A stretch of 64,000 bases of DNA from Candidatus Magasanikbacteria bacterium RIFOXYC2_FULL_42_28 (GCA_001784435.1 MFQZ01000001.1:82340-146339); one strand, 5' to 3'. Shown: positions 49,385 to 63,050, counted from the first letter of the stretch. Translations and numbers: made by a program. Notes: generated from the letters alone by a model not told the origin.

Positions 49385-51499
49385 TTATTTTTTCTTAATA
49401 ACCGGCGCTTTGGCCTGCTGTTGGGCCATAATAATTTGGGCGACTACCTGGTTGCCTTGTTCGTCCCAAATAATTTGATTTTCGTTGGCGCGATTAATTA
49501 CTGCCAGCGCTTGTTCCGGTTGGTTATTCATTTGATAAATTAACGCCAGACGCCAATAGCCTTCAGCAATTTTAGAATTGTCAGTGATACTTTGCTCTAA
49601 CATCGCTATTGACTCCGCGCTTTTGCCCAGCATACTTCCCAAGCCGGATAAGGAATAAATAATTTGCTGTCGTTTAGGTGAATGGCGCAAGGCATCTTTC
49701 AAAAATCCTTCCGCTTCCAGATAATAATTATTATCCTTGGTAATATCCGCGCCGATTTGCGCCAATTGCGAGAGTGAAATTTGGTTGCGGATATCTAATG
49801 GGTGAAGCGTCAAATTCTTTTTTAATTCCGAATAAACAATTTCCCAAATTTCTTTACTCGCGTCCGCGCCAATTTTATCGCGCGAAGAATAAAGCAGTTG
49901 CGCGGCACTGCGACCAATATCAGCGCGAATGTCGTCAATGTGAGGTGAGGAAAAAGCTAAAACCTTTTTCATTTCTATAATCGCCAAAACTGGATTTTGC
50001 TGGAGTAAACGCAAAACATTTAACGTGCTGGTGTTGGCACGGGCGGGTTGGATGTTAAAAAGAAAAATAACAATTAGACAAGCGACAGCAACAGTACCGA
50101 CGATGCCAGTGCCGATTTGACGATTGATTGACGTTGAAGGAATGATTAGATTTTTTTTATTATGTACGTCAATGCTATTGGCAACTTTAAGGGATCCTTC
50201 GCTGCGCTCAGGATGACAATGGGCGGACATACTATTAATAAGCGCCAGCCAAAACATAAAATATAAATAGGAAGTGGGATTTTCAAATACGGTAACATTA
50301 CCCACCAAATGCGCGACTAAAAAGGCCATGCCAACTACAACAATATGCGGCTCCAACCCCGACCGCTTCCAAGCGTAAAATAAACCGGCAATGCCAACCG
50401 CAAAAATGGCCAGATAAGTAATAATGCCAAATGCCCCCTGCACCGCCAAGGTATTGACAATGATATTATGCGCGTTATCAAACCAGGTCTCGCCATAACC
50501 GAAATCCAGCGACCGGGCGCGATAATGCGCGTTAAACGCGTAAAAATAATTATTCGGTCCCCAACCAAAAAATGGCTTCTCTTGCCACGATTCCACCGCG
50601 ATTTCCCAAGCAATCCAGCGCGGGCTATTTTTCAAATCGGTAAATGAGGTGTTAACAGTGCGGCCAACCGCCGGGATATTTTTGACAAAATCAGTAGAAC
50701 GAAACCCGACTAACAAAGCAACAACCAAACAACCAAACACCGCTAGACCTGATAAAATATAACGCGCTTTTTTGTTTTCTTTTAAAACGATAATATAACC
50801 AATAATCGCCGTGCCAATACCGGCCAACAACCCGAGCATGGAACCGCGCGTACCACTATAAAATAACCCGAGCGCGGCCAAAACCCCAGCGACTGCTATG
50901 GCAATTTTGCCAATGGTGTTTTTTTCTTTCACGTACAAAAGATAACTGACAAAACATAAAAATAGGCCGTAACCACCGACATAAATAGAATTACCCAAAC
51001 TACTATTCACGCGTTCCGATCCTTGATTTAACAACAAATTCGGGTCTGCTATTTTTTGAAAAATACCAATCAACATTACCAACGAACCCGCACTCAAAAA
51101 CCCAACTAACGCCCACTTCCAATCGGTCCAATTTTTAAACACCGCCGTAGCGATAAAATAATAAGCAACGTAATGAAAAATTGTGAATAATCCTAACATG
51201 CGTTCGTGGTTGTCCCAAAAACTATGATACGGGTCCGGACCGACAAAAGTAGAGATGGTAAAACTTAATAAAAAAGCCGCCATTACTAAATTTAAGGCGG
51301 TGAATTTGGGTTTGTATTCTTGCCAATTAATGATAAGTAAAAGCGCGTAAGCGCCCAACATCAAAGTTACCAAGGACCGAAAAAATAAGATTTTTGGCAC
51401 GATAAACGGGAAAATAAAAGATGACGGTATCACCACGAGCGGAGTTAAAAAAGTGGCGTAAATTAAAATTTTTACGGCGATTTCAAGGTTGCGTTTCAT
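49385..51499 (-). CDS. Wzy_C-family membrane protein (O-antigen ligase / O-oligosaccharyltransferase-like) with C-terminal TPR-repeat domain
   Basis: About 10-12 TM helices. Wzy_C-like YSGTRGSMLGLLAGIG loop. The C-terminal ~200 aa are TPR-like (...AEGYWRLALIYQMNNQPEQALAVINRA...). Contains an in-frame hairpin element (copy A). Confidence 0.55.
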   Translation of the reverse strand: MKRNLEIAVKILIYATFLTPLVVIPSSFIFPFIVPKILFFRSLVTLMLGAYALLLIINWQEYKPKFTALNLVMAAFLLSFTISTFVGPDPYHSFWDNHERMLGLFTIFHYVAYYFIATAVFKNWTDWKWALVGFLSAGSLVMLIGIFQKIADPNLLLNQGSERVNSSLGNSIYVGGYGLFLCFVSYLLYVKEKNTIGKIAIAVAGVLAALGLFYSGTRGSMLGLLAGIGTAIIGYIIVLKENKKARYILSGLAVFGCLVVALLVGFRSTDFVKNIPAVGRTVNTSFTDLKNSPRWIAWEIAVESWQEKPFFGWGPNNYFYAFNAHYRARSLDFGYGETWFDNAHNIIVNTLAVQGAFGIITYLAIFAVGIAGLFYAWKRSGLEPHIVVVGMAFLVAHLVGNVTVFENPTSYLYFMFWLALINSMSAHCHPERSEGSLKVANSIDVHNKKNLIIPSTSINRQIGTGIVGTVAVACLIVIFLFNIQPARANTSTLNVLRLLQQNPVLAIIEMKKVLAFSSPHIDDIRADIGRSAAQLLYSSRDKIGADASKEIWEIVYSELKKNLTLHPLDIRNQISLSQLAQIGADITKDNNYYLEAEGFLKDALRHSPKRQQIIYSLSGLGSMLGKSAESIAMLEQSITDNSKIAEGYWRLALIYQMNNQPEQALAVINRANENQIIWDEQGNQVVAQIIMAQQQAKAPVIKKK
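50188..50224. repeat. hairpin element copy A (TTAAGGG-ATCCT-loop-AGGAT-GACAATGG), in-frame inside the ligase-like gene (encodes CHPERSEGSL)
   Basis: Read from the sequence. See the finding on the hairpin family. Confidence 0.6.
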
Positions 51500-51513
51500 A
51501 ATAAAATATAAAT

Positions 51514-51538
51514 AAATAGCACTGGTTAAGTGCTATTT
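51514..51538 (-). other. perfect 9-bp-stem hairpin AAATAGCAC-(7)-GTGCTATTT followed on the minus strand by a T-rich tract running into the ligase start codon
   Basis: Read from the sequence. Possible terminator/attenuator between the PLC-like gene and the ligase-like gene. Confidence 0.4.
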
Positions 51539-51564
51539 ATTATACTAAAATTTGATAGAAAGGT

Positions 51565-62000: not shown

Positions 62001-62925
62001 CCGTGTAATCGCCGTTAGTGGCTTTTAAGATAAATTTACCGAAGACAACATTGTCAATATTAATGACAACATTGCCACCGGCTGGGGTGTTAGCGGAAAT
62101 GCTAACTTCCAAATTGCCGTTTACTACGACCGGCGGAACAACCGGCGCACTTTCCACCGCCACACCATGATCAGTAAACATATCTTCCTGGGCGTTCAAA
62201 GCAGTGCCCATGGAATATGCGGCAGTGCTCGACAAAGCCAACACATTTTTGGTTTGAAATTTGTTCGCGGCGAAACCGGTGTCGGTTACTTCGCGTAATT
62301 TCATACCAGCGTCCACATAGTAGGTCTTACCACCATTGGACACAAGCATACCTTCGGTCGGAGTGGCTTCGGTCAATTCACCGGCAACTTTGTTGGAACC
62401 GGTGTTGTAATAACCCCAGTCCGCATCAGAAACAACTACCAATCTCTTGTATTGATTATAACCATTTTTGCTACTAAGCAAAGTGGCATAATCCGCGCCA
62501 TACAAGGCCTTGGCCGCGCCATCAGAAATTTGTTGTAATTTCTTGCCTGGCAACACGACATAATTAATGGACGGAGCGCTTACTTCGCGTACGATAAATG
62601 TGCCACTGCGAGGCAATACCGCGCCAGCTGGGTCCAAATCTGCCAAGCAGGCATCGGATACAGTAGTAAATGTATAAGCATTGTCAGCGGTCCAAGATTT
62701 GTATACATCACCGTGCGGGAAATAGGTGCGTGAGGTCAAATTGGTGCCTACAACCCAGATACCAGGGCCACCGGCCTTGATCATCTGACCAGCGGCTAAA
62801 GCCGGGCAATCAGCGGCTTGAGCGACAGACGGCACCAAGGCCGCGACGCCCAAAGACCACATGATGGTCGTAACGACAACGCTAACGGTAAAAGCTTTCT
62901 TAGTTAATTTTAATACGTTGTTCAT
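59026..62925 (-). CDS. giant secreted/surface protein (about 1300 aa; candidate S-layer or adhesin-like protein), Thr/Ser/Val/Asn/Gly-rich beta-sandwich-type repeats
   Basis: The ORF is open to 63075. The internal Met at 62925 begins a typical signal peptide MNNVLKLTKKAFTVSVVVTTIMWSLGVAALVPSVAQA|AD, so this is the likely start. No catalytic motif recognised. Composition is typical of surface-layer/adhesin proteins. Confidence 0.5.
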   Translation of the reverse strand: MNNVLKLTKKAFTVSVVVTTIMWSLGVAALVPSVAQAADCPALAAGQMIKAGGPGIWVVGTNLTSRTYFPHGDVYKSWTADNAYTFTTVSDACLADLDPAGAVLPRSGTFIVREVSAPSINYVVLPGKKLQQISDGAAKALYGADYATLLSSKNGYNQYKRLVVVSDADWGYYNTGSNKVAGELTEATPTEGMLVSNGGKTYYVDAGMKLREVTDTGFAANKFQTKNVLALSSTAAYSMGTALNAQEDMFTDHGVAVESAPVVPPVVVNGNLEVSISANTPAGGNVVINIDNVVFGKFILKATNGDYTVSSVKIGRKGLGAKGDIASVTLYDGATKLGSSMTSWDSNSETLVYNIPTGLKVTNGTNKELTVVAKLDTAGTYNSLGILAVNGTAVSAVYGNEMTGVDVAVGALSITNMGTAATKKIGVNAVNLAEFKLNVSSTEDGVFNSITLKNKAATSNASDTDVANLYLYQGATKLAGPVSMASDKVAFVLNTPVTIKKSQNEVFKVVGDIVKGNANTLEFVLENTTDLVVMGSTYGTNLVIHNDQYNAAAEGAIITISGAELNVAYTGTTLETIDDVTDVVFGTLSLGAGSTDIKITSLILTVDETEGNATAADTLDVDSFELVDAAGGAYSGTMTAGGDTDADDETWTFSDEIYLTAGTTRTFTMRGDLPNGIGNGDSYKVSATVNTTNVVAETVPEGDTVSNFSIGSFTGMLVTVKTPTLRVEGATLNSGTATVNDADVILYKGTLEAQASNIKVSYVNFNSNVAFASGHWTQVGFYLVNADGSYAAQQILTNSQMTSSTSASGDALSFDSLDFTVNNGPTNKATFVVKGTVASTLTDTNGLINQLKLDYITSKAADNSSPTVSSGSAAGTDDLDDADNDFLTVGGRQVTLVDKGKLYLQMRSTDTGFNKDSVVLAGTSFWAGKLKLKADDENIKVKDLKLTNATDSGEERSAASVCLYREQVVLAANLISCQTMDASSVVFYDDINEVVEQGTEYWYIYVNTNPMNDLAGGTARTHDVFSFKVTTSTASSVAAEGVRSGFTYVISDDATVSAGDIVFDEDNDDTYDEAGELDMTTSTKKFVVSGTKISNVQLLSSYGCDAAGNNCTYKVDPVLAGTGEYVAGILAVTVDSVGLNNDPDNGNPLKLNLTGVRFDVDKFASTSLSGVTIQKIGGSDPAGSLDISNLNSTGASAGLASTTALSGVLANDYLIDPGTIAYYVVKATVNGVSATTNFTNWFQFNLDDIKGTYTDGDTSTEDDVNNNIDWKDGDSSNPFSALFLSLENVDGVKVSKTNN

Positions 62926-63018
62926 AATATAATTAAGTATTCCATAAATTTTGCGCGCGCTCCGAAAGGAACTCGTCAAAATATTATGGAAGTGAGGCGA
63001 CCACGCGAACCCCCGACA

Positions 63019-63050
63019 GAGATCCCGATTTACATCGGGATGACAGTTGG
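63019..63050. repeat. hairpin element copy D (ATCCCGA-tttaca-TCGGGAT-GACAGTTGG) in the 5' leader / upstream extension of the giant surface-protein gene
   Basis: Read from the sequence. Confidence 0.55.

Follow-up and report, generated by a model that had tools for sequence, protein, structure and literature searches.

Four tagged hairpins in a surface-protein segment

We analyzed a 64,000-nt stretch of the genome of Candidatus Magasanikbacteria bacterium RIFOXYC2_FULL_42_28 (MFQZ01000001.1:82340-146339; the whole stretch is referred to below as the window), in which a first-pass annotation had described a family of short hairpin elements with differing, self-complementary stems. The elements lie among genes for surface polysaccharide and surface proteins, and all genes between 47 and 64 kb are on the minus strand. 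Host gene 1 (49385-51499, minus) encodes a 704-aa Wzy_C membrane protein with a C-terminal TPR region (Pfam PF04932, E = 4e-20); its "ligase" character is O-antigen-ligase-like and not that of a nucleic-acid ligase. A 100%-identical protein is on record from Candidatus Magasanikbacteria RIFOXYC2_FULL_42_, which places the window in the CPR/Patescibacteria. Host gene 2 (51617-55237, minus) encodes a 1206-aa protein with Pfam LTD (lamin-tail) and Beta_helix matches and a PT-rich repeat linker, which at the DNA level consists of 21-nt periodic repeats (53560-53783). Its product, previously described as PLC-like, is secreted or surface-located and gave no Pfam match to phospholipase C at E ≤ 0.01. 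The third gene (59026-62922, minus) encodes a giant surface protein. We take its start as the ATG of MNNVLKL..., which is probably correct given that a signal-peptide-like N-terminus begins at residue 52 of the maximal open reading frame (ORF); an exact-sequence look-up of the shorter product from this putative ATG returned no record.

Four elements, which we call c1 to c4, are found along these genes. Each consists of an unpaired TGTC tag, a palindrome that starts and ends with AT, a loop, and an unpaired three-base tail. The c1 element (50191-50218, minus; TGTC-ATCCT-GAGCGCAGCGA-AGGAT-CCC) is a canonical copy with an 11-nt loop, positioned in the linker that follows the last Wzy_C membrane helix of host gene 1 and translated as CHPERSEGS. 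The c2 element (53692-53720, minus; TGTC-ATCCC-GAGCGAAGTCGA-GGGAT-CCC, with a 12-nt loop) and the c3 element (53788-53834, minus; TGTC-ATTCC, a 30-nt expanded loop, GGAAT-CCC) are degenerate copies, both located in the PT-rich linker of host gene 2 and translated as VIPSEVEGS and VIPTEATGGSEVEES, respectively. The c4 element (63019-63045, minus; TGTC-ATCCCGAT-GTAA-ATCGGGAT-CTC) lies in the 5' leader of the giant surface-protein gene, ~100 nt upstream of its probable start. The four copies share one polarity, with the tagged strand in each case being the minus, gene-sense strand. As the first-pass annotation had reported, they lie at the positions it gave and each has a self-complementary stem of a different sequence. 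In c1-c3 the stem comprises five Watson-Crick pairs, and we assign these copies to a subfamily in which a 9-12-nt loop is bracketed by GA...GA, while c4 has a classical 8-bp stem with a 4-nt loop.

The same annotation held that the elements are translated in one shared frame inside three genes. Translated copies are confined to two genes, the Wzy_C-like and the LTD/beta-helix genes; c4 probably escapes translation, since it is located before the MNNVLKL... start, which opens a typical signal peptide. The shared frame applies to the tail half, where GGA TCC CTT gives GSL in common, but not to the heads: TGTC begins at codon position 1 in c1 (TGT CAT CCT, encoding CHP) and at codon position 3 in c2 and c3 (GTC ATC CCG, encoding VIP). 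The tails are in frame together and the heads are not because the loop of c2 measures 12 nt and not 11.

To score these sites independently of the window, we trained a covariance model (R1) on 57 distinct copies from other genomes and phyla, none of them from the window, and ran it unfiltered over the 64 kb. Its top four matches are c1 (E = 1.1e-9), c2 (E = 1e-5), c4 (E = 1.5e-3) and c3 (E = 0.56), the last carried by stem, tag and tail only, and no further match in the window rises beyond noise level. Because a model of foreign copies recovers exactly these sites, the original observation is real, and the window contains exactly four copies of the family. Two further hairpins had been proposed as relatives, at 54067-54089 and 63147-63192, and neither is matched by R1. 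The second is an inverted repeat (AGTATGACA-(26)-TGTCATACT) whose arms have ATGACAGTG in common with the c2 and c4 heads, arranged tag-inward; perhaps two heads survive here as a remnant, or else the repeat may be an operator or terminator with no relation to the family. Rfam gave no match in the window at gathering thresholds, and none at the four sites at E ≤ 10. Full-text literature searches with the peptide strings and with 14-20-nt DNA strings of the element returned nothing relevant, and the relevant papers surfaced through keywords instead.

Measured against the window alone, the elements are less distinctive. Perfect stems of 5 bp or more that precede ATGACA, counted generically, number 5 in the window versus 2.0 ± 1.4 in shuffled sequence, so that window data by themselves exclude chance only thinly. 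The first-pass annotation had suggested comparing stem complementarity with shuffled controls, and the outcome is divided: c4 folds more stably than its dinucleotide shuffles (z about -4), and c1-c3 do not (z = -0.8 to +0.9). The minimum-free-energy fold of c1 contains two inner G-C pairs inside the loop.

An alignment of flanks shows that c2 and c3, inside the 21-nt-repeat linker, have ~25 nt of additional flanking sequence in common; the two copies therefore probably represent one insertion that was locally duplicated, not two independent insertions. Both look decayed, because each has lost the GA-GCGNAGC-GA loop motif of the canonical subfamily. In c2, the loop sequence GAGCGAAGTCGA breaks up the GCGNAGC mini-hairpin.

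All four copies fall within a 13-kb surface-polysaccharide/surface-protein segment (50188-63050), and none is found in the other 50 kb. Several other repeats occur in the same neighborhood. Tandem 15-nt units (TCAACCGGCTAACCC), five to six in number, run through the 3' end of the LTD gene and across the spacer that separates it from the Wzy_C gene (51549-51646). A gene encoding a PG_binding/fn3 protein contains internal repeats (56841-57315 and 57804-58287; 255 and 309 nt long, 85% and 70% identical) that are probably domain duplications. Upstream of the giant surface-protein gene, at 63200-63460, AT-rich repeats AATGTCAAAT and their complement ATTTGACATT (which includes TTGACA) occur three times on one side and, inverted, twice on the other, and this region holds a single sigma-70-like match on the minus strand (63275-63247). 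Similar AATGTGAAATGTCAAA runs stand beside elements in a viral contig (L020).

A widespread subfamily with covarying stems

We gauged the breadth of the family with two search patterns. Pattern A fixed the loop and the tag and left two stem pairs free; applied to IMG/VR viral contigs, it matched at least 120 contigs, and among the matches listed the two free pairs were Watson-Crick in 146 of 146 and 138 of 146 copies, with several pair types represented. Pattern B left all five stem positions free and matched at least 120 stretches of species-representative genomes. Hosts among the pattern B matches listed include Acidobacteriota, Chloroflexota, Nitrospirota, Gemmatimonadota, Bacteroidota, Planctomycetota, Verrucomicrobiota, several proteobacterial classes, Saccharibacteria, and one metagenome-assembled genome (MAG) of a Nanoarchaeota.

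The first-pass annotation had read the four differing stems as covariation implying selection on the hairpin. This is not demonstrable on four copies, and we argue it from the whole family, where it is overwhelming: among the 155 pattern B copies in the matches listed, 137 are paired at all five stem positions and the other 18 at four of five, with A-T as the first pair in 127 and T-A as the second in 137. In the alignment of 57 distinct copies, 94.4% of cells are paired and all five pairs show double-sided changes. None of 500 shuffles reaches the observed covariation value, and sliding the pairing partner lowers pairing to 17-53%. Conservation ends sharply beyond a unit of ~28 nt, with no conserved flanks, and the first base of the tail is C in 98% of 135 copies (equivalent to G at position -1 on the opposite strand).

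The canonical loop of the subfamily, on the tagged strand, is GA-GCGNAGC-GA, and variants of the loop show internal covariation (TCGCT.CGCTC to TCACT.CGTTC). The GA dinucleotides on either side would, we assume, oppose one another as tandem G.A mismatches. The enclosed GCGNAGC is known as an extraordinarily stable DNA mini-hairpin (PMC13037366). From the combination of tandem G.A and GCGNAGC, the tagged, purine-rich strand is predicted to be the one that folds. Asymmetry of G.U-type wobbles, a possible indicator of the folding strand, was uninformative (10 versus 9 without stem position 1).

Copies are commonly arranged as inverted dimers. Of the exact-pattern pairs, which come from related loci, 19 are tag-outward and 2 have the opposite arrangement, and the gap is at most 100 nt in 90 of 113 adjacent tag-outward pairs versus 13 of 70 in the opposite arrangement. 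Dimer spacers are locus-specific, often with complementary ends, and in 15 of 18 dimers the free loop base N of one arm is the complement of that of the other. There are no dimers within the window.

Many of the viral contigs (L001-L120) contain several canonical elements each, for example four in 5.4 kb in L074 and four in 13.7 kb in L080. Groups of 10-16 of these element-bearing contigs have large phage structural-type proteins in common, and for this reason at least one phage lineage is rich in the repeats. A Bacteroidales MAG (L217, 6291-7140) contains tandem arrays of half-units (ACTGTCATCCTGAGC, with short spacers) beside full elements; these half-units resemble heads without a 3' arm. 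In a Bacteroidaceae MAG (L140, 3562-4218), six matches to a loose pattern stand exactly 105 nt apart, and probably form a tandem repeat, which may be coding, and not a set of dispersed elements.

Relationship to CGTC-tagged REPs and Ssn nucleases

We consider it very probable that the four sites are members of the superfamily of CGTC/TGTC-tagged repetitive extragenic palindromes (REPs), also termed Ssn-related motifs (SRMs). CGTC-tagged REPs were defined by Di Nocera, De Gregorio & Rocco (2013; PMC3733652) as elements with an unpaired CGTC tag that is often TGTC (TGTC or CCTC variants being allowed), a stem of 8-9 bp that almost invariably opens with complementary A-T residues, a 4-5-nt loop, and a 3-nt tail with the consensus CCA. 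In that survey, head-to-head (HH) dimers predominate, with 20-100-bp spacers whose ends are often complementary, and REP doublets forming hairpins (REPINs) are HH dimers, on which basis we equate HH with our tag-outward arrangement (PMC3733652). The REPs are mostly intergenic and near the 3' ends of ORFs, in-frame intragenic units also occur, and no association with a transposase was found (PMC3733652).

The window copies resemble this class in several features. The TGTC tag, the A-T and T-A first pairs and the 3-nt unpaired tail are present in all four, three copies are intragenic and in frame, and c4 has the stem and loop dimensions of CGTC-1 (8 bp and 4 nt). The family at large adds the dominance of inverted dimers with 20-100-nt spacers and often complementary ends, a mainly intergenic placement close behind ORFs, and the lack of a linked transposase. 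The tails differ from the consensus, being CCC in c1, c2 and c3 and CTC in c4 instead of CCA, and the Patescibacteria, or Candidate Phyla Radiation (CPR), and most of the phyla found here lie outside the 2013 survey.

The first-pass annotation had compared the elements to Rickettsia palindromic elements (RPEs), inserted in frame into exposed protein regions, which fits well with this assignment: the CGTC family is stated to include RPE-4 and RPE-6, as well as the Neisseria dRS3 (PMC3733652). Like the RPEs described by Ogata et al. (via PMC3733652), the elements are palindromic, lie in frame in intact genes, add a short peptide and vary among orthologues. The comparison has limits, since membership of the superfamily is stated for RPE-4 and RPE-6 alone among the RPEs, and the classic RPE-1, by its description, is ~100-150 bp long and unrelated in sequence.

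Among the closest known relatives is the 28-nt Neisseria repeat NTS (CGTCATTCCCGCGMAVGCGGGAATCYRG; Chenal et al., 2025, PMC11893778). NTS/SRM repeats flank ssnA, a gene for a 94-aa single-domain GIY-YIG nuclease that binds the tagged strand only as single-stranded DNA (ssDNA), cuts a few nucleotides upstream, and has no RNA binding (PMC11893778). Cleavage by SsnA is governed by the three bases (GTC) that precede the palindrome, and the base that matters most for binding is the C that follows it directly (PMC11893778). NTS cluster near membrane-protein genes, where they modulate transformation and the integration of transforming DNA, and they are rarely intragenic (2% in N. meningitidis; PMC11893778). 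Our elements are likewise directional units of ~28 nt, and GTC directly 5' and C directly 3' of the palindrome are found in 4/4 window copies. The clustering of these copies near membrane- and surface-protein genes also resembles the grouping of NTS, while their intragenic share (3/4) is unlike the 2% in N. meningitidis.

Elsewhere, the canonical subfamily is associated with genes similar to ssnA. In Hymenobacter glaciei (L229), a gene for a 93-aa GIY-YIG protein has canonical elements on both sides, and the Tyr6 and Tyr17 residues of this protein, which correspond to residues mutated in SsnA, are invariant in its relatives. Its size, its single-domain GIY-YIG Pfam matches and these conserved tyrosines suggest that it is Ssn-like (cd10448); NCBIfam and PDB gave marginal matches only (group I intron endonuclease, E = 1e-3; UPF0213 1zg2, E = 3e-3). 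We collected 80 metagenomic loci encoding relatives of this protein (48-84% identity), and found an element within 200 nt of the gene in 43 of them and on both sides in 28, as against none in shuffled sequence. Element density at these loci is 9.3 per 10 kb versus 0.3 after shuffling. The 191 elements concerned were identified without imposing any loop sequence; 180 have a 5-bp stem, 178 have TGTC, 170 (89%) have C after the palindrome and 157 (82%) have the GA...GA loop.

The published SRM pattern, HGTCWYN(0-2)YYVSBRHN(0-5)WNVSBRGN(0-2)RNCYNB, matches none of these 191 elements around Hymenobacter-type GIY-YIG genes, and no canonical subfamily copy matches it. Because the elements adjoin Ssn-like genes at 43 of 80 loci and yet 0 of 191 fit the pattern, the subfamily behaves in the manner of an SRM/Ssn pair and escapes the published pattern. 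Strict matches of c4-like shape do occur in the Magasanikbacteria relatives (L242, 4632-4659; L243, 4476-4503), and c4 itself is 2 mismatches from the pattern.

A number of observations weigh against our assignment of the window copies to this superfamily and its nuclease. The pattern has no strict match in the window, where the best fits of the four copies have 2, 2, 3 and 2 mismatches. The stems of c1-c3 (five Watson-Crick pairs) and their loops, which measure 11, 12 and 30 nt, depart from the published 8-9 bp and 4-5 nt; counting the G.A and inner G-C pairs would give 9 stem positions and a 3-nt loop, a reading beyond the published definition. By nearest-neighbour RNA parameters, the c1-c3 hairpins are thermodynamically ordinary. 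Copy number in the source genome was counted within the 64-kb window alone (four copies). A search for GIY-YIG/Ssn homologues found none in the window, nor in two relatives across their syntenic 22 kb (L242-L244 searched), and the Ssn-like label of the Hymenobacter-type protein is drawn from its size, its Pfam matches and its tyrosines.

Orthologue comparison and alternative explanations

We compared the Wzy_C linker among orthologues, following the suggestion in the first-pass annotation that related genes be checked for presence or absence of the insert; presence, absence and decay are all found. An alignment of 60 Wzy_C/TPR orthologues is hypervariable where it passes from one membrane helix to another, and the insert is missing from most of the proteins. 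One orthologue (P0005, 65% identical) has CHPERSEGS at the codon of c1, encoded by a near-identical element. Another (P0010) has three elements in tandem at the linker (VILSAAKDL, CHPEPCLSAGRRSEGS and VIPAKAGIH), and a third (P0053) reads CHSRESGNP...AKAGIQ. The 78%-identical P0002 (locus L325) carries a decayed CRSEQSVGRG, its DNA remnant being unpairable with an 18-nt deletion, and in P0003 (locus L243) the element is absent at the DNA level. Between the window and L242, the element is identical at 27 of 28 positions, and the adjacent coding DNA at ~63%. Since the element is present, absent or decayed among orthologues and is far better conserved than the flanking codons, the comparison argues for repeated insertion, or homogenization by other copies, and against old coding sequence. 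Neither c2 nor c3 occurs in the LTD orthologues of L242 and L243.

At residues ~425-470 of P0010, P0005 and P0053, up to three different family members occur within ~40 residues, all in the tagged-strand sense, which suggests that the Wzy_C linker is a hot spot, or that insertion was repeated next to existing copies. The syntenic 22 kb of L242 contain six elements, all in 7.5 kb (3762-11306); these include tag-outward dimers that lie 4-22 nt from neighboring ORFs.

These data bear on several alternative explanations. The least probable of them is that the similarity is due to chance or that the sites are ancestral coding sequence without element identity. The modest excess of generic hairpins in the window (5 versus 2.0 ± 1.4) and the ordinary energies of c1-c3 are what this explanation would predict, but it is effectively refuted by the absence of the insert from most orthologues, by the conservation of the element far above that of flanking codons, and by the independent covariance model (E = 1e-9 for c1 and 1e-5 for c2). 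We also judge it very unlikely that the sites are functional RNA hairpins, such as mRNA stabilizers, processing sites or translational pauses, selected at the RNA level. The tagged strand is gene-sense in all four window copies and in the L242 singletons, and REPs in general are thought to act also as RNA elements (PMC3733652). A broad sample nevertheless shows no orientation bias (26 versus 29 intergenic and 24 versus 23 intragenic copies, in a crude ORF-based test limited by spurious high-GC ORFs), there is no Rfam match, c1-c3 fold no better as RNA than their shuffles, and SsnA lacks RNA binding (PMC11893778).

Two further alternatives invoke transposases. Classical REPs and REPINs mobilized by a REP-associated tyrosine transposase (RAYT, of the HUH/Y1 type) are alike in outline architecture: these GTAG-type elements (Nunvar, 2010, PMC2817692; Bertels & Rainey, 2011) are short tagged palindromes of high copy number that form tag-outward inverted doublets and flank a "domesticated" nuclease gene. 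Searches with tblastn, using RAYT and IS608 TnpA queries, found three weak RAYT-like matches in ~2 Mb of element-bearing loci. These matches are few and degenerate, the one in L202 being a pseudogene, and none has REPtron-type flanking elements. The tag is TGTC and not GTAG/GTGG, GTAG-type sequences are usually species-specific, CGTC REPs lack a transposase association (PMC3733652), and the strong association is instead with GIY-YIG and not HUH/Y1 genes. We regard this explanation as highly improbable, and as slightly more improbable still the possibility that the elements are solo or paired terminal inverted repeats (TIRs) of a miniature inverted-repeat transposable element (MITE) derived from a DDE transposon with TG...CA ends. 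Dimers with TGTC...GACA outer ends and 20-100-nt spacers would look much like such an element, but TIRs fail to explain stem covariation inside each unit. Target-site duplications and conserved flanks were not seen, spacers differ at every locus, and full-length elements, expected as tag-outward pairs at 0.7-3 kb, are not in excess. Nor is there a recurrent transposase among neighboring ORFs: clustering of ORFs within 1.5 kb of elements yielded only the phage structural proteins shared by related viral contigs, without any cluster of transposases or nucleases. CRISPR repeats, attC sites, hammerhead cores and mimicry of a sigma-70 -35 box were dropped as candidates because their defining features are unmatched in the sequence alone.

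A proposed role in single-stranded DNA recombination

Taking the elements as members of the CGTC/TGTC-tagged REP superfamily, we propose the following model. The element is a short non-coding repeated DNA hairpin with an unpaired TGTC head, a palindrome beginning with A-T and T-A pairs, a loop, and an unpaired tail starting with C; in the canonical form, the GA-GCGNAGC-GA loop would combine tandem G.A mismatches with the very stable d(GCGNAGC) mini-hairpin. By homology with Neisseria NTS and SsnA, the tagged strand would fold when the DNA is single-stranded, and a small single-domain Ssn-type GIY-YIG nuclease may then bind and cut a few nucleotides 5' of the tag. In this organism, such cutting might affect the recombination or integration of ssDNA around the marked genes. 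The alternative role offered in the first-pass annotation, that of a recombination substrate, is in keeping with the finding that Ssn binds and cuts its repeats as ssDNA and that these repeats modulate the integration of transforming DNA (PMC11893778). We infer that the elements are mobile; an insertion sequence-like unit consisting of repeat, ssn and repeat has been proposed as the means by which copies multiply. The intact c1 and the decayed c2 and c3 would have come to rest in stop-free frames within the disordered linkers of two surface proteins, where they may be translated as tolerated filler peptides, and c4 in a 5' leader.

A more far-reaching reading, which as a whole we think unlikely, would join these points. 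The GA...GA subfamily would be a distinct and very large Ssn/SRM branch, spanning at least 10 phyla and many phage contigs, that SRM searches have not seen, with recognition through the tandem G.A pairs and d(GCGNAGC). In CPR bacteria, with their tiny genomes, it would possibly be homogenized at the O-antigen-ligase-like linker and clustered on a surface-protein locus, where it might mark genes for Ssn-controlled recombination of ssDNA (surface or antigenic variation); the translated peptides would then be a by-product or an exapted linker.

The window itself provides a new example of a known phenomenon, and suggests neither a new kind of element nor a new mechanism. What is modestly new is the structure of the subfamily, its breadth, its invisibility to the published pattern, and its in-frame presence in CPR surface-protein genes. 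For annotation, the elements explain the recurrent peptides CHPERSEGS, VILSAAKDL and VIPAKAGIH in hypothetical proteins and in the linkers of real ones. Strand-asymmetric stability, conferred by tandem G.A pairs and a GNA triloop, is predicted for the oligonucleotide d(ATCCTGAGCGAAGCGAAGGAT). More broadly, a known class of tagged palindromic repeats, the CGTC/TGTC REPs or SRMs, is extended to the Patescibacteria, and a very common subfamily escapes the published SRM pattern despite a like association with Ssn-like GIY-YIG genes, which would affect both counts of SRM elements and the choice of Ssn/target pairs as ssDNA tools.

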